Assembly: GCA_016432625.1 (NCBI GenBank)
Contig: CP066697.1
Location: forward strand, 151,113 to 215,112
Length of the DNA: 64,000 bases
Direction of reading: 5' to 3'
From: Candidatus Berkelbacteria bacterium
GTDB taxonomy: Bacteria; Patescibacteriota; UBA1384; 2-12-FULL-50-11
A model generated the notes under the pieces. It had not been told where the DNA came from and made no database searches. It saw only the letters and a list, made by a program, of their open reading frames with translations. The position numbers and the translations under genes were made by a program. This document shows, in pieces, positions 15,455 through 55,955 of this stretch; the stretch's first letter is position 1, and every line of letters begins with the position of its first letter.

Positions 15455-16415
15455 GCTTGGCGCGTAGCGGTGACTTTGCCGCTCGCAGTACAACATCAGC
15501 TAATTTCTCCGCGTCGTGGTAGAGCGGCCGCTGCTCGTCTATTACGTCAGCCAAAATAACTGGCATGCCCTCAATTTCGGTTTTGTCGGTTGTAATATTG
15601 CACACTTGTCCGAGCTTGCCCTCGTTGTTTGATTGGGCAACGACGGTATCATTAACGATCACGCCGTCGAAACGTGTGCCATTGACGTATTCGCGCAAGC
15701 GCCGGACGTGGTCTTCGACGCGATAGTTCTCGGTCTCGCCGCGCTCAGTGGAGGCGTTGCAGACGTAAAGTTTGCTGCCCTTGGCCTTCTCGAAAGCATC
15801 GCGAATCTCCTTAATTAAAAAGTTAGGCACAACGCTGGAGTAAAAACTACCTGGGCCGACAAGAATTAAGTCGGCTTCCTCAAGAGCGCGAACCGCCGCC
15901 GGATTAGCTGTCGCGTCCGGTGGCAGAAGCTGCACCCGTTTGATCGGCGAGCGGTGTCCCAGTACTGAAACGTCAACTTGCCCAAGGGCTGTCTGGCCAT
16001 TTTCAAGCTCGGCCGTTAGATTGACGTTGTCGAAAGTCGAAGGGATAACCTTCCCTTTGACGGCTAAGAATTGACTGGAGGCTTCAACGGCCGACTCAAA
16101 GTCGCCGGTAATATCGGCAAGCGCTAGTAGCAGTAAATTGCCCAAACTGTGCCCAGACAATCCTCGGCCCTGCTTGAAACGGTAAGCGAAAAGTTTGGTC
16201 GCTAGCTCCTCGTCTTTAGCCAGCGCTGTCAGGCAGTTACGGACGTCGCCCGGCGGCAGGATGCCTGTTTCTCGACGAAGACGGCCGCTGGAGCGGCCGT
16301 TGTCGGTCATCGTTACTATGGCGGTAAGTTTAACTGGATAGCTTTTTAAGCCTCGCAGCAAGGTTGCCAAGCCGCTTCCCCCGCCCAAGGCAACAATCTT
16401 CAGATGATCATTCAT
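15435..16415 (-). CDS. yvcK: YvcK/CofD-like (UPF0052) gluconeogenesis-factor family protein
   Basis: IVALGGGSGLATLLRGLK N-terminal motif and PGSFYSSVVPN motif. Confidence 0.8.
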   Translation of the reverse strand: MNDHLKIVALGGGSGLATLLRGLKSYPVKLTAIVTMTDNGRSSGRLRRETGILPPGDVRNCLTALAKDEELATKLFAYRFKQGRGLSGHSLGNLLLLALADITGDFESAVEASSQFLAVKGKVIPSTFDNVNLTAELENGQTALGQVDVSVLGHRSPIKRVQLLPPDATANPAAVRALEEADLILVGPGSFYSSVVPNFLIKEIRDAFEKAKGSKLYVCNASTERGETENYRVEDHVRRLREYVNGTRFDGVIVNDTVVAQSNNEGKLGQVCNITTDKTEIEGMPVILADVIDEQRPLYHDAEKLADVVLRAAKSPLRAKLNVLTR

Positions 16416-16942
16416 GGCAGTAAAGGATAGACGAAATCATTCTTCTCGTCATCTTTACCCCAGGCCTGCACTGTAAAAGACTCCTCCGCGCTAGCGGTTT
16501 GCCGATTAACTGAGCCGTGTACCGTAATCCTAAAAAGGCCGATATCGTGAAAGTCGCTGACTTTAAACCGGTAAGAATACCGGCCTGTCTCGTCGGCGTT
16601 AACTTGTCGGGTCTCCGGGCGCTCGTAATTACCGTTCGAACCAGCGGCGACGATGTTCAACTCGGCGAAAGGCAGCGCGGTAACTGTAACGACTTGGTAC
16701 TGCCCAAGCTTCATTACCTTGCGGGACAACTCAAGCTTCAACTTAAAGTCCTGTCTTGAGGAGTTTCCAGCTTCTGCGAGTACTGTTTGGGCGATGGATA
16801 TCGGTTCTCTCTGGGCAGCCGATTGCTTATTCCAAGCAACCCCGGCACCAGTCAAAACGACAACCGCTCCGGTAAAGACCGTGTTACGGATAGTTTTGAT
16901 TAAGGCTTGAGTCTGTTCCGGGGTTCTACGCGAGCGGGACAT
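16412..16942 (-). CDS. Membrane-anchored hypothetical protein
   Basis: 176-aa ORF with a 4-nt overlap with yvcK. One TM helix near the N-terminus. Confidence 0.5.
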   Translation of the reverse strand: MSRSRRTPEQTQALIKTIRNTVFTGAVVVLTGAGVAWNKQSAAQREPISIAQTVLAEAGNSSRQDFKLKLELSRKVMKLGQYQVVTVTALPFAELNIVAAGSNGNYERPETRQVNADETGRYSYRFKVSDFHDIGLFRITVHGSVNRQTASAEESFTVQAWGKDDEKNDFVYPLLP

Positions 16943-17030
16943 TAAGGGTATTGTAGCAAACCATCGCTCGCGTACGCGGTACGGCTGCTTTTCTGGTTGG
17001 CTAAAATGTGGTTATGCTAAGAAAGCTATC

Positions 17031-18008
17031 ATGACAGATGTTTTAGTTATCGGTTCAGGTATGGCAGGGCTTTCAGCAGCGATTTACGCTGCTCGTTATA
17101 ATTTGGAAACGCTTGTTATTGGTCATGAGTTTGGCGGTGCCACCTCAACTGCTTGGACTATCGAGAACTATCCCGGCTACGTCTCAATCGATGGCTACGA
17201 CCTAATGATGAAGGTTAAAGAGCAGGCAGAAAAGACCGGCGCCAAGATTGTCACGGACCGAGTTATTAAACTCGAAAAGAAGAACGATCACTTCGTGGCT
17301 CAAACTTTTGAGGGCGAAATGTACGAAACTAAAACTATTATTCTTGCCTGTGGCGCGGCGCGAAAAAAAATGGGACTGGCACGTGAAGATGAGTTCGCAC
17401 TCGGAAAAGGCGTCCACTACTGCACTACCTGCGACGGCCCGCTCTACAAAGGCAAAACCGTCGCCGTAATCGGTAGCGGCGATTCGGCGGTCAAGGGTAT
17501 AAAGCTCGCCGTACAGTACGCTGAGAAAATTCACTGGCTAATCCGTGGTGAAGTTATTAAAGCCGAGCCGTTCAATTATGAAAAAGTTAAACACTACTTC
17601 GGCGACAAGATTATTGTTCACTACAACACGTCCATTACCGAGCTTTTGGGCGAGAAACGACTTAACGCCGTCAAGCTTAATACCGGTGAGACCCTAGAGC
17701 TTGATGGCTTGTTCGTTGAGATCGGCGCTCTTCCTGAAGTTGAGCTCGCTCACCACTTAGGCGCGGCGCTCGACGAGTTCGGTTTTATAAAAGTAGACAA
17801 CATGATGGAGACTAACGTTGATGGCATCTACGCTGCCGGCGACGTGACGAACTTTTTCGGCCACTTTAAGCAAGACATTACCGCCGCGGCAATGGGTTCA
17901 GTCGCCGCCACTAGCGCTTTTAAGCATATTCAACACGCCCCAACAGTCCAGGAGGCGAAAGCCACGCCCGCCGAGCAGCCATCAACGGTTAGTAATTTGA
18001 ATAAGTAG
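17031..18008 (+). CDS. trxB: Thioredoxin-disulfide reductase
   Basis: VIGSGMAGLSAAIYAAR FAD motif, redox-active CTTCDG, VIGSGDSAV NADPH motif. Confidence 0.9.
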   Translation: MTDVLVIGSGMAGLSAAIYAARYNLETLVIGHEFGGATSTAWTIENYPGYVSIDGYDLMMKVKEQAEKTGAKIVTDRVIKLEKKNDHFVAQTFEGEMYETKTIILACGAARKKMGLAREDEFALGKGVHYCTTCDGPLYKGKTVAVIGSGDSAVKGIKLAVQYAEKIHWLIRGEVIKAEPFNYEKVKHYFGDKIIVHYNTSITELLGEKRLNAVKLNTGETLELDGLFVEIGALPEVELAHHLGAALDEFGFIKVDNMMETNVDGIYAAGDVTNFFGHFKQDITAAAMGSVAATSAFKHIQHAPTVQEAKATPAEQPSTVSNLNK

Positions 18009-18054
18009 TGGGTCGGGTGGGGATTTCCTCCGCTGCGCTCCGGTATCCCCACCC
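18008..18054 (-). repeat. tRNA-Lys 3'-end copy 1 (short form) abutting the trxB stop codon
   Basis: GTGGGTCGGGTGGGGAT (18008-18024) is identical to the tRNA-Lys 3' end read on the plus strand. It pairs with ATCCCCACCC at 18045-18054 around a 20-nt CGCT-rich loop. Confidence 0.75.
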
Positions 18055-18065
18055 TCTTGGCCAAG

Positions 18066-18090
18066 TGCAAAAACCGCCCATGAGGGCGGT
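18066..18090 (-). terminator. Rho-independent terminator (minus strand)
   Basis: ACCGCCC-tcat-GGGCGGT followed by TTTTT when read on the minus strand. Confidence 0.6.
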
Positions 18091-18100
18091 CTCTGCATTG

Positions 18101-18196
18101 GTGGGTCGGGTGGGGATCTCGCGCCTTCGGCGCTTGAAAGCTCCTTCGCTCACGCTCTGTCGCTATCGAACCCACTTCGTGCGTTCTCTCCCCACC
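18101..18196 (-). repeat. tRNA-Lys 3'-end copy 2: pseudo-tRNA 3' fragment with a roughly 48-nt structured insert in the T-loop
   Basis: Minus-strand reading is GTGGGTTCGAT[AGCGACAGAGCGTGAGCGAAGGAGCTTTCAAGCGCCGAAGGCGCGAG]ATCCCCACCCGACCCAC. Removing the bracketed part restores the T-arm and acceptor 3' strand of the neighbouring tRNA-Lys. Confidence 0.75.
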
Positions 18197-18203
18197 ACAA
18201 ACG

Positions 18204-18224
18204 AAAAAGCTGCCAAATGGCAGC
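18204..18224 (-). terminator. Rho-independent terminator directly after tRNA-Lys
   Basis: GCTGCCA-tt-TGGCAGC followed by TTTTT on the minus strand. Confidence 0.6.
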
Positions 18225-18235
18225 GCTTCCGTTTG

Positions 18236-18307
18236 TGGGTCGGGTGGGGATCGAACCCACGACACACGGCTTAAAAGGCCGTTGTTCTACCACTGAACTA
18301 CCGACCC
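18236..18307 (-). tRNA. tRNA-Lys (anticodon TTT)
   Basis: Acceptor GGGTCGG/CCGACCC, anticodon stem ACGGC/GCCGT with loop CTTTTAA, T-arm GTGGGTTCGATCCCCAC. Confidence 0.9.
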
Positions 18308-18724
18308 TGAGCTCTGAGCGAGCGCAGGAGTGGAACCGGAAGGCGCGGAAAATGCTGTTATTTTTCGGCATTTGCAGCGCCGAGGGATTCCTTCAAGTTA
18401 TTTTACGGGAAACATGCCTTTTCCTCAATTAGGAAACGGATCAAGAAACGGTTGAGCTTTTGACAGTAGGTGCTATCATTGTTAGACCTTTGCGCTTCAA
18501 CGACGCAGTGCAAGGGAAATCGGAGGGTATCCAATCGTGTCATTTAATAGAAGCAATCTCGTCGCTCATGCGTCCAACAGGACGACCTTCTCCTTCAAGG
18601 GAGGGAACCGCCGACCGGCACCGAACTGCTCGCCTCTGAGCAATCAGCGTCGGCTGCAGAACATCAACGGCGGCAAACGCCAGCAGGCGAAGAAGTAGAG
18701 GCGAATCCGCTTCACACCAAAGAA

Positions 18725-21787: not shown

Positions 21788-22159
21788 TCAAACGCTTTTC
21801 TTTTGGCCGTCTCTAACTGAGAGTTGGTCAGAGTACGTGTTACGGAGCTTGATATATTCATCAATCGTGTAGGCCCTCTGCCAATCACACTCCAACACAT
21901 CAACCAAATGGAAAAAATTATTTTCAAGTTTCGCTCTGCGCTCATCAATCTGCTCCCGCGAGCGAAGATCACGGATACCTAAGTATTTTTCATAGATTCC
22001 TTTCGCTCTCAGATGGAAAGAATCCAGTTTGGTTTCGATTAACTCTCTATTTTTCCACCAAGAATTACGGGCGGTATCCAGAATTTCGTTGGCGTGAGTC
22101 CGTACACATTTGCCCTGGCATCTTCTTTCGGCCTGAGCGAAAAATCTTCTGTGACGCTT
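21788..22159 (-). pseudogene. Start-less open frame continuing the 163-aa ORF in the -1 frame (frameshifted gene, programmed slip, or homopolymer error)
   Basis: 123 stop-free codons with no ATG, GTG or TTG in the first 80 or so. They encode ...NEILDTARNSWWKNRELIETKLDSFHLRAKGIYEKYLGIRDLRSREQIDERRAKLENNFFHLVDVLECDWQRAYTIDEYIKLRNTYSDQLSVRDGQKKSV. The frames join at an A5 run (T5 on the plus strand, 22050-22054). Confidence 0.45.
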
Positions 22160-22530
22160 TCAAAAGTTCCTTTTGGGCATAATATTACTACCACCTTTGG
22201 CATAACGGCCGTGCCGAATTGAATCAACCTGTTCTGGTAGTGAGTCTTTGTCCAATAGAATAAAACTTCAAGGCCTTCACTCTTTTCTTGAAAGGCTTCC
22301 CAGAAGTGTTGAAAATCCATTTTATTGGTAATAAACCCAGAAATTTCTCGATCAATACCCTTGCACCTCAGCGAGATAGTGGCGTAGGGAACGTCTTTTA
22401 CCTTAGATATTACTTCGCCATTTTCAACCGTACTACCAAGCGGTCGGAGTTCGTTAGCTATACATAACTTGCTATCGATAACCGACCACTCATTATCTCT
22501 AAGTAGGACAACTTCTTCTGAGTTATTCAT
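22039..22530 (-). CDS. Hypothetical protein (AT-rich islet), probably the 5' part of a longer frameshifted gene
   Basis: 163-aa ORF with ATG start. No recognisable motif. Confidence 0.5.
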   Translation of the reverse strand: MNNSEEVVLLRDNEWSVIDSKLCIANELRPLGSTVENGEVISKVKDVPYATISLRCKGIDREISGFITNKMDFQHFWEAFQEKSEGLEVLFYWTKTHYQNRLIQFGTAVMPKVVVILCPKGTFESVTEDFSLRPKEDARANVYGLTPTKFWIPPVILGGKIES

Positions 22531-22593: not shown

Positions 22594-23952
22594 TTATTCT
22601 TTGAGACCCATCTCGGACCGTATATCGCTAATAAAAGTCTTCGCTTTCTCTTCAAGTATATTTTGATCGGGCCTGACACTTGCTAGGAACAACTCGAAAT
22701 ATTTTAGTGCCTTAACTAGGTCGCGCAACTTTTTATAGGCAATGTAGCCAAGCCAAAAATGCAGTTGATTCCTATCAGGATAAGTTTCAAGGAGATTCAA
22801 ACAAAACTGTTCAACCTCTTGGATGGTAAGCCATTCTTCGGAATACTCATGCTCAACAATTTTCCTCGAGGACTTATAAGCCTCGTCGTATTCCGATAAC
22901 CAATAATGCAAAAATGCATCGCTGTACCTCCACTCCTGGGCTCCATTAGCTAAGTTCTTCGCAAGCGCGATTTCTTGTTGCGCCGCCTTCGCATCACCTT
23001 CCTTGAATAGTTCCACGGCTCTTACTAGATGAAAACCGTACTGATTAGGGTAATAACTCTGTGCTCTTTTCGAAAACGTTGAGTACGACGCTAGGTCATC
23101 CTTCAGTAAAGACATTCGTGCTTTTAGCAAATAACTACCTGCCAATAATTGTTTGGCCTTGATCTTTACTTCCTCAATATTTGGAGGTAAATCATTTCTT
23201 TGAAAAAGCTTATCGTCAATTAGGCGCTCGTGGAGGGTTATTGCGAGGTTGACGTCACCAGATAAGAATGCAGCAATACCTACTATGTACTTTGCCGATA
23301 AATAAACAAAATCAGCGGTTAAGGCGAACCCTCTAAATCGGAATTCTTCTAACATCTCCACTTCTTTAGGTAGGGATCTTACAAAGTCGGCAGATAATTT
23401 AAACTGACTGTTTTTGTCTATCGGTGAGTGCACTACTAAACCACTTAAATCAATAAAAATCTTTTCCTTTTCTCCATCAGGACGTTTTTTAACGTCTCCG
23501 AAGACGAAATAGTGTCCATGGACTGTCTCATTTATTGTTCGCGCAATTTCATAGTTTTTTACTTTCTCGGCAATATGGTTGGGTACTTTTACTACTGTGA
23601 CTAACTCACTCAATCCATCTGCGACTAAGTTTTTTCTTACCTGGTCAAGAAAGTCCTTTTTAGCATCTATTTCCTCGAGGTTATCCTCGCTGTAAAGCGC
23701 GAAAACTAATCCAAGCTTCCCCTCGGGTATTTTTGGAAGCCACTTCCTTACTACTATCCAAGCAACTATCTCAATTAAGAGTAATACTACGAGGCCCCAT
23801 CTTAGATAACTGACTCCAAAAAGTTCTAAGAGGGGTTTATAGATAGCCGCAAATATAATGCCCGTTAACACTACCGTGACTAATAATCCGCGAAAACTTG
23901 CAAAGTTAATTCTGATGTATGACAAATAGGGTCGCAGTTTATCAATTGGCAT
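22594..23952 (-). CDS. Two-TM membrane protein with a central alpha/beta-like domain and C-terminal TPR-like repeats (AT-rich islet)
   Basis: The ATG at 23952 gives MPIDKLRP... The track ORF instead begins at a TTG at 24000, immediately after the dnaK stop. TM helices occupy residues 30-90. The C-terminal half is helical-repeat-like (YGFHLVRAVELFKEGDAKAAQQEIALAKNL...). Confidence 0.6.
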   Translation of the reverse strand: MPIDKLRPYLSYIRINFASFRGLLVTVVLTGIIFAAIYKPLLELFGVSYLRWGLVVLLLIEIVAWIVVRKWLPKIPEGKLGLVFALYSEDNLEEIDAKKDFLDQVRKNLVADGLSELVTVVKVPNHIAEKVKNYEIARTINETVHGHYFVFGDVKKRPDGEKEKIFIDLSGLVVHSPIDKNSQFKLSADFVRSLPKEVEMLEEFRFRGFALTADFVYLSAKYIVGIAAFLSGDVNLAITLHERLIDDKLFQRNDLPPNIEEVKIKAKQLLAGSYLLKARMSLLKDDLASYSTFSKRAQSYYPNQYGFHLVRAVELFKEGDAKAAQQEIALAKNLANGAQEWRYSDAFLHYWLSEYDEAYKSSRKIVEHEYSEEWLTIQEVEQFCLNLLETYPDRNQLHFWLGYIAYKKLRDLVKALKYFELFLASVRPDQNILEEKAKTFISDIRSEMGLKE

Positions 23953-24000
23953 CAGCCTATAAAGAAAGAGAGCTGATAGCTCTCTTTCTTGTTTCTCCAA

Positions 24001-48915: not shown

Positions 48916-48999
48916 GCGGTCCCAACGGGAAGTCTCGCAGCTGAGCTGCTCGGAAAGCTCCTACGCTAACGCTCCGTCGCTACCGAACCCGCGGGTTCG
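48916..48999 (-). repeat. tRNA-Glu 3'-end copy with the same structured T-loop insert as the tRNA-Lys copy 2
   Basis: GCGGTCCCAACGGGA (48916-48930) equals 49053-49067 inside and next to tRNA-Glu. Minus-strand reading is GCGGGTTCGGT[AGCGACGGAGCGTTAGCGTAGGAGCTTTCCGAGCAGCTCAGCTGCGAG]ACTTCCCGTTGGGACCGC. Confidence 0.75.
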
Positions 49000-49053
49000 A
49001 CACCGCGAGCAGGTAGTAAACACGGCCCGGAAATTCCGCGCCGTGTTCCCTAG

Positions 49054-49127
49054 CGGTCCCAACGGGAGTCGAACCCGTGATTTCCGGGATGAAAACCCGG
49101 CGTCCTAGGCCACTAGACGATGGGACC
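49054..49127 (-). tRNA. tRNA-Glu (anticodon TTC)
   Basis: Acceptor GGTCCCA/TGGGACC, anticodon stem CCGGG/CCCGG with loop TTTTCAT, T-arm ACGGGTTCGACTCCCGT. Confidence 0.9.
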
Positions 49128-53578: not shown

Positions 53579-53965
53579 TGGTGGACCTGCCGGGAGTTGA
53601 ACCCGGGTCCGAGAACCTACGAACGAAGACGTCTACAAGCGTAGAAAGTTTAAAGTCTTAGCAGCTGGGCTTGAGAGCTTTCAAAAAACCCGACTGAGCA
53701 ACATCTTATTCTGAGGAGTTGTACCGATGTGCGCACAATCCCGGTTCTACTTTTTGACGCCTCGTTACCTTAGTAGAAGTCAGGTGACGAAACGGCATTG
53801 GCCGTTAGGCTAATGCTGTTGCAAAAGAAGGAGTCGCGAACAAGTTCGCAACACGAGCTTTTGCAGTTTCAAATGCGTTTGCACGTATTTGTTTTGCGCT
53901 CTAAGGCAGGCGCGTCCGCTTGCAGTCCTCGCTGTAAACGTTCCCGTCGAAGCCAGTACAGGCCC
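53579..53965 (-). ncRNA. ssrA: tmRNA (SsrA), about 387 nt, CCA encoded
   Basis: 5' GGGCCUG pairs with 3' CAGGUCC-ACCA, giving a G3:U pair. 3' T-arm GGACCCGGGTTCAACTCCCGGCAGGTCCACCA. The internal tag frame ends ...ATPSFATALA-TAA. Confidence 0.9.
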
Positions 53966-55552: not shown

Positions 55553-55753
55553 AACACTAAAGTAACTTATTCTTCGTGGGGATACCACGGGTGGCAAAGT
55601 CCCTCGCGAGAGCTGTCGCCGCTTTACGGAGCAGAGTGGTGCGAAGCGAAGAAGAAGATGTCCTGAGCCGCTGGCCAGGGCATCTTCATTAGGAACCAAT
55701 CCTCAAACGGTCGACTATTTAACCTCCTAATGCTATACTTGCCCTGTTTTTAC

Positions 55754-55833
55754 GCCCCCGTAGCTCAGTGGATTTTACGCGCTAGCGCTTCAATCCCCTT
55801 CGCTACTTCGGCAAAATGAAACAATAGTATTCT
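55754..55833 (+). repeat. Duplicate of the first 21 nt of tRNA-Arg, followed by a hairpin and a CGCT-rich tail
   Basis: GCCCCCGTAGCTCAGTGGATT occurs at 55754-55774 and again as the tRNA 5' end at 55834-55854. The first copy is followed by GCGC-ta-GCGC TTCAATCCCCTTCGCTAC. Confidence 0.75.
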
Positions 55834-55907
55834 GCCCCCGTAGCTCAGTGGATTAGAGCGGGACGGTTCTAACGTCAAGGTCGCAGGTTCGAATCCTGCC
55901 GGGGGTA
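55834..55907 (+). tRNA. tRNA-Arg (anticodon TCT)
   Basis: Acceptor GCCCCCG/CGGGGGT (G1:U72), D-arm GCTC/GAGC, anticodon loop GTTCTAA, T-arm GCAGGTTCGAATCCTGC. Confidence 0.75.
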
Positions 55908-55955
55908 CTACTTCTACTTGACAAGCTCGGCATTTCCCCCGATTGTAGTGTGTAG

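Follow-up and report, generated by a model that had tools for sequence, protein, structure and literature searches.

Why should a bacterial tRNA gene be followed by a second copy of its own 3' end, and why should the T-loop of that copy be interrupted? The question is raised by tRNA-Glu(UUC) in a stretch of 64,000 nt (the window) from a metagenome-assembled genome (MAG) of Candidatus Berkelbacteria bacterium, which belongs to the candidate phyla radiation (CPR/Patescibacteria; GCA_016432625.1, CP066697.1, positions 151,113-215,112, forward strand). The window is part of a 768,791-bp contig, and the source genome measures ~0.77 Mb. The first-pass annotation of this DNA had pointed out that GCGGTCCCAACGGGA at 48916-48930 is identical to 49053-49067, the 3' end of tRNA-Glu, and both the coordinates and the strings are confirmed here. 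It had matched this copy, together with a similar one behind tRNA-Lys(UUU), to no known family. We find instead that the layout is the one by which the tRNA-linked repeats (TLRs) of Escherichia coli are defined. The explanation we favor, with a probability of roughly 0.55, is that the element is a TLR-type (rtT-type) trailer RNA which is co-transcribed with the tRNA and in which the copied tRNA end serves as a 3'-end processing signal.

Anatomy of the Modules Behind tRNA-Glu and tRNA-Lys

All layouts are read here in tRNA sense; the Glu and Lys modules of the window both lie on the minus strand (Table 1). A module is ~90-135 nt long and lies directly 3' of the tRNA gene, on the same strand and behind the tRNA promoter. 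The first of its parts is a hairpin or terminator (T0). Next come two pieces copied from the T-arm, one inverted and degenerate, the other direct and made up of the 5' half of the T-stem with UUCGA, and these are followed by a cassette and the tail copy. The cassette (46-50 nt) bears a purine-rich single-stranded stretch with GGA/AGGAG and a 5-bp hairpin with a 3-nt loop (Pb). After a linker of 3-4 nt the hairpin is followed by the tail copy, which repeats the tRNA exactly from nt 58/59 in the T-loop up to nt 74 (or CCA). A second terminator, T1, often closes the module. Both window modules begin 1 nt past the tRNA, and the modules of the relatives L019, L020, L021, and L027 are likewise located downstream in the same orientation.

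The T-arm pieces were mapped by k-mers, which gave the inverted piece, the direct T5'/T-loop piece, a gap and the direct 3' end, in that order. Counted 3' of the tRNA, the inverted, direct and 3'-terminal pieces lie at +39, +60, and +117 for Lys and at +52, +62, and +123 for Glu. At the Glu locus the inverted piece represents tRNA 51-60 (+52..+61) and the direct piece tRNA 51-58 (+62..+69), and together they form a palindrome of UCGAACCCG followed directly by CGGGUUCG. The Lys inverted copy agrees with the reverse complement of its own T-arm at 15/18 positions and the direct copy equals tRNA nt 48-58; according to the folds the two would form the helices P1 and H1. The T-loop interruption claimed for both loci is real. 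The Lys copy is split after TTCGA (GTGGG-TTCGA-(48 nt)-ATC-CCCAC-CCGACCC-A-C) and the Glu copy after TTCG (GCGGG-TTCG-(50 nt)-ACTT-CCCGT-TGGGACC-G-C). The interrupted T-loop is part of a partial, palindromic copy of the T-arm region and not a gene. The inverted T-arm copies at both loci, the second Lys tail copy and the tRNA-Arg case treated below go beyond what the first-pass annotation had noted.

The inserts at the two loci are homologous. Local alignment of the Glu and Lys elements gave 34/38 identical positions, a score reached by 0/500 shuffles, which corresponds to the 35/40 counted earlier. The window contains exactly two instances (18136-18173 and 48953-48990) of a degenerate 38-nt core, GAAAGCTCCTwCGCTmACGCTCyGTCGCTAyCGAACCC, and 100 dinucleotide shuffles contain none, so that the earlier view of a genuine element family, as opposed to a chance repeat, holds. 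The three phased CGCT repeats that had been singled out in the core, however, are not kept in a second type of cassette. Type 1 is found at Lys and Glu, while type 2 is found at Lys in L021 and L027 and at Gly in L019. The insert length stays constant at 46-50 nt even where the sequences are unrelated.

At the Lys locus the module lies between two terminators, as T0 and T1 flank it. The corresponding hairpin of the Glu locus occupies the T0 position, has no clear U-tract and was not called by the terminator scan. The first Lys tail copy continues with CA and therefore reads ...ACCA, while the gene itself has no CCA. All nine tRNA genes of the window (6541-55908) have a C after the discriminator base, with CCA not encoded. 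Behind T1 the Lys locus carries a second, hairpin-less unit (E2), whose tail copy (17 nt, 18008-18024) lies directly against the stop codon of the trxB-like gene, which runs convergently. The likeness of E2 to the type-1 core is weakly significant by local alignment against shuffles; its 20-mer is identical to the fragment-proximal 20-mer of L020 at 15/20 positions, as counted from the sequences. The Glu tail copy is followed by AGAUUUUUCG and then by the stop codon of a convergent open reading frame (ORF) of 246 aa; the ORF adjoining the Glu module has the NCBI locus tag HZB70_01850. Over 271 nt the Glu locus is identical in L001, an independent Logan assembly from this sample, and the module is therefore not an artefact of one assembler.

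Conservation and Covariation

The comparison set consists of about five genomes from one clade. The relatives (L019, L020, L021/L022, and L027) are syntenic loci from four other genomes, which were reached via homologs of the trxB-like gene. L019 (TrxB 88% identical to that of the window) has the same type-1 module behind tRNA-Lys and no second unit, and L020 (TrxB 84%) has a diverged, hairpin-less insert of 49 nt behind tRNA-Lys. In L021/L022 (TrxB 79%) tRNA-Lys and module are inverted as a block, and the insert is of type 2 (48 nt), which in L021 reads CUGCGA, a hairpin GCAAG/CUUGC, GAGAAGUGGA, a hairpin GCCGC-AAU-GCGGC, and GGAA. L027 (TrxB 75%) likewise has a type-2 insert, and there both hairpins carry compensated changes (GCAAA/UUUGC; GUCGC/GCGAC). 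The inverted block of L021 (11024-11270; also in L022) comprises tRNA-Lys, module and promoter region, which, seen against trxB and the F420-ligase gene, are turned together.

Between the window and L019 the third codon positions of trxB are 40-41% identical (GC content at these positions 0.55 vs 0.52). Against this, the identity is 96% across the 207 nt of tRNA-Lys with its module and 75% in the flanking 8.6 kb; the module alone is identical at 124/132 positions (94%). Between L021 and L027, T0 and the spacer have diverged, and conservation extends from GGGUUCGA across the cassette and on to the tail copy. The differences within this stretch fall in the hairpin stems, as compensated pairs. 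The tail copy equals its own genome's tRNA-Lys 3' end in every genome, across the three acceptor variants CCCGACCCA, CCUGACCCA, and CUCGGCUCA, and it also matches the local tRNA at Glu and Gly. The exact matches extend over 15 nt at Glu, 17-18 nt at Lys (twice) and 17-18 nt at Gly (L019), a little less than the 18-19 bp of the E. coli repeats treated below.

The compensated stem GCGCC/GGCGC at Lys against GCAGC/GCTGC at Glu is as described in the first-pass annotation, and covariation extends further across six distinct Pb sequences (five from CPR, one from E. coli). The compensatory changes were compared among Glu, Lys, L021, L027, the Gly module of L019, and E. coli, with the hairpins located by eye. 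All 30 of 30 cells are paired and 5/5 pairs have changed on both sides; 0/500 shuffles reach the observed pairing or covariation, and all slid registers fail. Two G.U pairs in helix H1 (L019 and L021) exist on the tRNA-sense strand only. An A-to-G change in L019 retains a pair of the T-arm-copy helix as G.U on the tRNA-sense strand only. Judged by these sequence comparisons, the module appears to be maintained by selection at tRNA-like conservation and not to be a decaying scar. The alternative offered in the first-pass annotation, a functional structured RNA or DNA site, fits this conservation far above the neutral level.

Comparison With the tRNA-Linked Repeats of E. coli

TLRs were described in E. 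coli by Egan and Landy (1978) and Rudd (1999) (as cited in PMC8144298). E. coli K-12 has 22 TLRs at ten loci, situated in tRNA or rRNA operons, and a TLR is defined by 18-19 bp at its 3' end that exactly repeat the 3' end of the next gene upstream (PMC8144298). The founding members are the 178-bp repeats behind tyrT/tyrV, from which rtT RNA (gene rttR) derives (PMC8144298). In 2021 TLRs were stated to "have no known function." RrB is made by read-through of T1 and then processed, with the repeat proposed as the 3' processing signal, and it binds Hfq and CsrA in E. coli (PMC8144298).

With the same k-mer script as used for the window, the tyrT/tyrV repeats gave the inverted piece at +57/60, the direct piece at +81/84, and the 3'-terminal copy at +157/160; this internal layout of the tyrT type is our reading of the sequence and not part of the published definition. 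The tyrT/tyrV repeats and the CPR modules share the three-part order, the position directly behind the tRNA gene within its transcription unit, a 3' end equal to the last 15-19 nt of the tRNA, and the split of the T-loop after UUCGA. The anti-loop GAGAA(C/G) of the E. coli TLRs recurs in L019 and L021 as well as in the window. These TLRs also have, 5 nt before the tail copy, a hairpin of 5 bp with a 3-nt loop (AGCGC-GCA-GCGCU); across the E. coli and CPR modules this distance is 3-5 nt. In both groups the insert is purine-rich and GCGA-rich, tandem units occur (the E. coli array has 3.14 repeats), and the internal part is common to the loci while the ends are locus-specific. The differences are the insert length (68 nt in E. 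coli vs 46-50 nt here), the host (Enterobacteria vs CPR), and, on the CPR side, tRNA genes without encoded CCA and two cassette types. The strong hairpin or terminator between tRNA and repeat makes the CPR modules more like the TLRs of the rrn operons than like tyrT.

These are RrA, RrB, and RrF of E. coli rrnA, rrnB, and rrnD, where the order is gene, T1, module, 3'-end copy, and T2, as compared with T0, module, copy, and T1 at the Lys locus of the window. Both have a split copy of the 3' region of the upstream RNA and two hairpins with a GGA-containing linker. The upstream gene of the rrn repeats is 5S rRNA, and hence they have no T-arm. For RrB read-through expression is documented, whereas for the CPR module we infer it. 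In the rrnB TLR between T1 and T2 (NC_000913.3, 4171757-4171950), a split copy of the 5S 3' region is seen, GAGTAGGA ... AACTGCCAGGCATCAAAT, with two hairpins and a GGA-rich linker between the halves, a plan shared with the units at tRNA genes.

At the gathering threshold an Rfam search of the whole window returned only tRNAs and the tmRNA. At relaxed thresholds (181-261 nt searched) the best Rfam match of the Lys module is RtT (RF00391), with 19.2 bits (E about 0.1-0.2) against a gathering score of 45 bits. The alignment spans model positions 1-130, with a P1 strand, GAGAAC, GGUUCGA, and the tail AUCC...CCACCA in register. As the score is below the gathering threshold, the Lys module is not a member of the RtT sequence family, and the Rfam check proposed at the outset has given a sub-threshold match for Lys and no RtT match at E<10 for Glu. 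The module belongs to the TLR class by definition and architecture, not to the Rfam RtT family.

Modules at Other tRNA Genes and in Related Genomes

Related cassettes are found at tRNA-Lys, tRNA-Glu, and tRNA-Gly in this lineage, and tRNA-Arg is a probable further case. Behind tRNA-Gly(GCC), L019 carries a module of type 2. The site is empty in the window, which shares the terminator downstream; the filled site carries a direct repeat of 17-18 bp. Gain or loss at the DNA level therefore does occur. E2, present in the window, is absent in L019. L005 (GCA_022843855.1) has tRNA-Glu with nothing behind it. The tmRNA gene of L005 has a gene for a large serine recombinase as its direct neighbor (16312-18266), which suggests an element integrated at ssrA. 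In L026 (254-450) a tRNA-Glu with encoded CCA is followed by two tandem units of 61 nt, each made up of a trailer with an anti-T strand (complement of CACGGGUUCGA) and a copy of the 3' third of the tRNA with the T-loop intact. These units may represent a cassette-free precursor state of the module.

The unit at tRNA-Arg(UCU) is the probable mirror-image relative of the 3' modules. Directly behind a sigma70-like promoter (55711-55739) lies an exact copy of tRNA nt 1-21 (55754-55774), followed by a truncated type-1-like cassette on the opposite strand (55775-55805) and a spacer, with 59 bp between the copy and the gene. As the likeness of the cassette reaches only p~0.01-0.02, its membership in the family is tentative.

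Pattern searches added no further members. The 25-nt core gave 0 matches in contigs of species-representative genomes, and GGTTCGA-N35-65-ATCCCCACCNGACCCA gave two chance matches in the same contigs (one coding, one a tRNA-Tyr flank); the source MAG and its relatives are not among the species representatives, which explains why these scans brought nothing of use. Three matches in metagenome contigs were all unrelated, and those in viral contigs were chance or coding matches only. Two JGI metagenome contigs (L003, 83-200; L004, 800-880) have inverted repeats GTCATyCTGAGCGnAGCGAAGrA ... TCCTTCGCTGACGCTCAGGATGAC with a core resembling type 1 and no tRNAs near; since our own search pattern had selected them, the resemblance is not independent evidence. 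Logan contigs that extend the window by ~5 kb and ~3 kb contained no new tRNA.

Table 1. Positions of the tRNA genes, modules and associated elements in the window.
Feature	Position	Strand	Sequence, remarks or basis
tRNA-Glu(UUC)	49053..49127	-	ARAGORN; Rfam 63.7 bits
Sigma70-like promoter of tRNA-Glu	49180-49152		Promoter scan
Strong hairpin directly 3' of tRNA-Glu	49019..49047	-	AACACGGCGCGG-AAUUU-CCGGGCCGUGUU; sequence and minimum free energy folds
Glu H1 palindrome	48984..49007	-	Inverted T-arm copy CGCGGUGUCGAACCCG and direct T-stem 5' half/T-loop start GCGGGUUCGG
Glu type-1 cassette, 50 nt	48934..48983	-	tRNA sense: GUAGCGACGGAGCGUUAGCGUAGGAGCUUUCCGA + hairpin + GAG
Glu hairpin Pb	48937..48949	-	GCAGC-UCA-GCUGC; 3 nt upstream of remaining T-loop
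tRNA-Glu 3'-end copy	48916..48933	-	ACU-U-CCCGU-UGGGACC-G-C; exact identity 48916-48930
tRNA-Lys(UUU)	18235..18307	-	tRNA scans
Promoter-like site of tRNA-Lys	18428-18400		Promoter scan
T0, intrinsic-terminator-like hairpin	18198..18234	-	GCUGCC-AUUU-GGCAGC-UUUUUCGUUU, extended stem; terminator scan and folds
Lys T-arm copies	18165..18196	-	Inverted GGUGGGGAGAGAACGCAC, GAA, direct GUGGGUUCGA
Lys type-1 cassette, 48 nt	18118..18165	-	UAGCGACAGAGCGUGAGCGAAGGAGCUUUCAA-GCGCC-GAA-GGCGC-GAG; hairpin Pb 18121-18133
First tRNA-Lys 3'-end copy	18099..18117	-	AUCCCCACCCGACCCAC + CA; tRNA nt 58-74; 17 nt at 18101-18117
T1, second terminator	18069..18091	-	GACCGCCC-UCAU-GGGCGGU-UUUUU; sequence; RNAI model, terminator part; kept in L021
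Second, hairpin-less unit E2	18008..18054	-	Inverted repeat GGGUGGGGAU, 20-nt cassette remnant ACCGGAGCGCAGCGGAGGAA, second tRNA-Lys tail copy
tRNA-Arg(UCU), probable mirror-image unit	55754..55833	+	Gene 55834-55908

Possible Function and Origin of the Modules

In the reading that we favor, transcription from the tRNA promoter would read through T0 into the module. Its two T-arm copies, inverted and direct, would pair (P1 and H1), with the cassette branching off as a junction, and through its tail copy the trailer RNA would have the 3'-end determinants of the tRNA. A defined small RNA could then be set free by the tRNA 3'-maturation machinery, in amounts coupled to the transcription of the tRNA, as proposed for E. 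coli RrB. The conserved single-stranded stretch AAGGAG/GUGGAG would be the obvious candidate binding site of such an RNA. Copies might be gained and lost by DNA events at the direct repeats of 15-21 bp, that is by duplication, recombination or gene conversion.

Several points weigh against this. Transcription, T0 read-through and processing of the module are all steps that we infer from the analysis, and the evidence base is confined to the about five genomes of one clade. The identity of 94-96% between the window and L019 could in principle also mean recent transfer or conversion of the whole unit of tRNA and module. Helix P1 is absent in L021, and RNAalifold on MAFFT alignments of whole modules gave no convincing consensus, which can be put down to the two cassette types being out of register. 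The Arg cassette is antisense to the tRNA, which fits a DNA-level logic better than a co-transcribed RNA. As to the likeness with E. coli, the Lys module misses the RtT gathering score and the Glu, L021, and L020 modules have no RtT match at E<10. Local alignments between CPR and E. coli inserts reached at best p = 0.015-0.05, uncorrected and for a biased GCGA-rich composition; as this likeness is marginal, common descent with the E. coli TLRs is unproven and convergence is possible.

It is less probable, although still worth serious thought, that the module is a miniature, trans-mobilised DNA element of 80-160 bp which integrates at the T-loop or the D-loop of a tRNA gene. It would bring its own copy of the sequence from the loop to the gene end and so leave the tRNA intact, and its cassette hairpins would be recognised by a recombinase or a single-stranded-DNA transposase encoded elsewhere. 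On this view the modules would be conserved owing to selection for mobility, or to recent spread, and not owing to a benefit to the host. The filled and empty tRNA-Gly sites with their direct repeat, the presence of E2 in the window and not in L019, and the tandem arrays of L026 and E. coli are all in agreement with mobility, as is the finding that each cassette type occurs at different tRNAs with only the tRNA-derived flanks being locus-specific, and that orthologous Lys modules bear different cassette types. The tRNA-Arg duplication, which extends from the D-loop as far as nt +1 and lies behind the original promoter, is mirror-symmetric about the gene and not tied to the direction of transcription, and the duplications stop at the ends of the tRNA gene, as with integrases of the T-loop sublocation. 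Williams is said to have distinguished, in 2002, such sublocation classes of integrases within tRNA genes, the T-loop among them. The filled and empty Gly sites are also what would be expected of the mobile, non-autonomous element that the first-pass annotation had put forward; the words "targeting tRNA T-loops" used there are too narrow, since the interrupted T-arm is a partial copy and not a gene, and since at tRNA-Arg it is the D-loop and the 5' end of the tRNA that are involved. On the other hand, the 38 ORFs scanned (part of the window; 8% of the genome) include no integrase, transposase or reverse transcriptase, and the viral, metagenome and genome scans gave chance matches only. A tyrosine recombinase expects a T5'-like arm next to the crossover loop, and here the two are 46-50 nt apart. 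Fixed selfish copies would be expected to decay, whereas the vertically inherited copies of L021 and L027 keep cassette and compensated hairpins at saturated divergence, and the G.U pairs are strand-specific. Miniature inverted-repeat and palindrome-associated transposable elements (MITEs/PATEs) would be expected as numerous, nearly identical copies at unrelated places, with defined ends and a cognate transposase; the 64 kb contain two full copies of the module and two partial ones, each of them at a tRNA gene, and no transposase was seen in the annotated part. This reading and the favored one need not compete, as origin and turnover may be due to DNA events and maintenance to an RNA function.

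A functionless origin, with the modules as attR-type remnants of larger elements or as leftover tandem duplications of tRNA 3' ends, is in our opinion very improbable and has already been largely refuted. Direct repeats of a tRNA 3' end are a classic integration footprint, L026 has plain tandem duplications of the 3' third of tRNA-Glu with trailer, and the recombinase gene of L005 stands beside the tmRNA gene. Yet the 116-122 bp between the repeats hold no credible ORF, the module is as conserved as the tRNA (96% vs 75% in the flanks) at saturated synonymous sites, the insert length is held while the hairpins covary, and the copy follows the three tRNA-Lys acceptor-stem variants. Attachment-site (att) repeats of elements integrated at the T-loop resemble the modules in their direct repeat from T-loop to 3' end, their tandem arrays, and their presence or absence among relatives; they differ in that the CPR module is without cargo or integrase, has a cassette splitting the copied T-loop, and shows purifying selection and covariation at the junction. 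Tycheposons are reportedly elements of this kind, integrating at the T-loop region of tRNA genes. We give hardly any credence to the modules being interrupted or split tRNAs, whether as the exon of a T-loop intron (archaeal-type or group I) or as a 3' half joined in trans. The interruption does have a defined place, 58/59, in a part of the T-loop that is structurally tolerant, and Patescibacteria are rich in tRNA group I introns, but those described lie in the anticodon loop (PMC13011429). The copy also lacks the 5' strand of the acceptor, the D-arm and the anticodon arm (nt 1-47), it adjoins an intact tRNA gene, and an insert of 46-50 nt with no Rfam intron match is far too small for a group I intron.

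A further and rather doubtful idea is that one unrecognised mechanism, operating from Enterobacteria to CPR, joins a two-hairpin cassette to the loop-side end of a terminal tRNA segment and installs the product beside the parent gene. The segments would be nt 58/59-76 on the 3' side and nt 1-21 on the 5' side, the same pieces as the tRNA-derived fragments tRF-3 and tRF-5. The route could be fragment capture and reverse transcription, or loop cutting of folded, displaced single-stranded DNA at highly transcribed stable-RNA genes. Hints in this direction are CCA on copies of genes without CCA (the first Lys copy of the window, and L021), duplications bounded where the mature RNAs end, a split that in both phyla comes after A58, and the mirror-symmetric Arg case.

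Other known systems were considered and rejected. The homing crRNA (CRISPR RNA) of type V-K CRISPR-associated transposons, TnpB/IscB guide RNA and IS110 bridge RNA do not fit, given the lack of a nuclease or transposase context, the CPR host, and a copy only 120 bp from its target. Hammerhead, pistol, and twister ribozymes were dismissed for want of core motifs and of an Rfam match, and a group I intron for the small insert (46-50 nt) and the missing Rfam match. A sigma70 promoter inside the cassette has the wrong spacing and no scan match, and a small ORF behind AAGGAG has no start codon at the right distance. The resemblance of H1 to the R''/R' pair of integron attC sites is explained by its T-loop origin, and the complement of CCA expected of a retroviral-type primer-binding site is present in only 2/8 copies.

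Other Features of the Window

The gene context of the window is a housekeeping one, with CofD, a thioredoxin-reductase-like protein, DnaJ/DnaK/GrpE, ComEC, RecG, and a peptidyl-prolyl isomerase (PPIase). The region 5' of tRNA-Lys (18399-18702) is 72% identical to L019 over 307 nt despite saturated synonymous sites, with nothing found by Rfam at gathering level, and could be an unannotated leader or noncoding RNA. The tmRNA of the window (53579-53965) encodes CCA and has an unusually long predicted tag (ANAFETAKARVANLFATPSFATALA). Between 20000 and 24000 the GC content is 0.41-0.46 as compared with ~0.50 elsewhere, and the ORFs at 22039-22530 and 22594-24000 have no Pfam match; this segment, which lies beside dnaK, may be foreign or fast-evolving DNA.

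Significance

TLRs have been known from E. coli since 1978. Going by sequence, what is new here appears to be the presence of TLR-type anatomy in a very distant CPR bacterium with a tiny genome. The split T-arm layout, with its split point, the GAGAA anti-loop and the hairpin before the tail, is not confined to Enterobacteria, and the anatomy seems to be kept by selection in a genome of ~0.77 Mb with little space for junk. The TLR copies of E. coli are few and closely related, which limits comparative work. The Berkelbacteria lineage supplies diverged orthologs, two cassette types and filled as well as empty sites, and thereby material for covariation-based structures and for the birth of modules. 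If the modules are mobile DNA, they would represent an element of unusually small size which restores the tRNA gene that it has entered. If they are trailer RNAs, as we favor, the tRNA units of reduced genomes would carry an extra class of small RNA with an output tied to tRNA synthesis.

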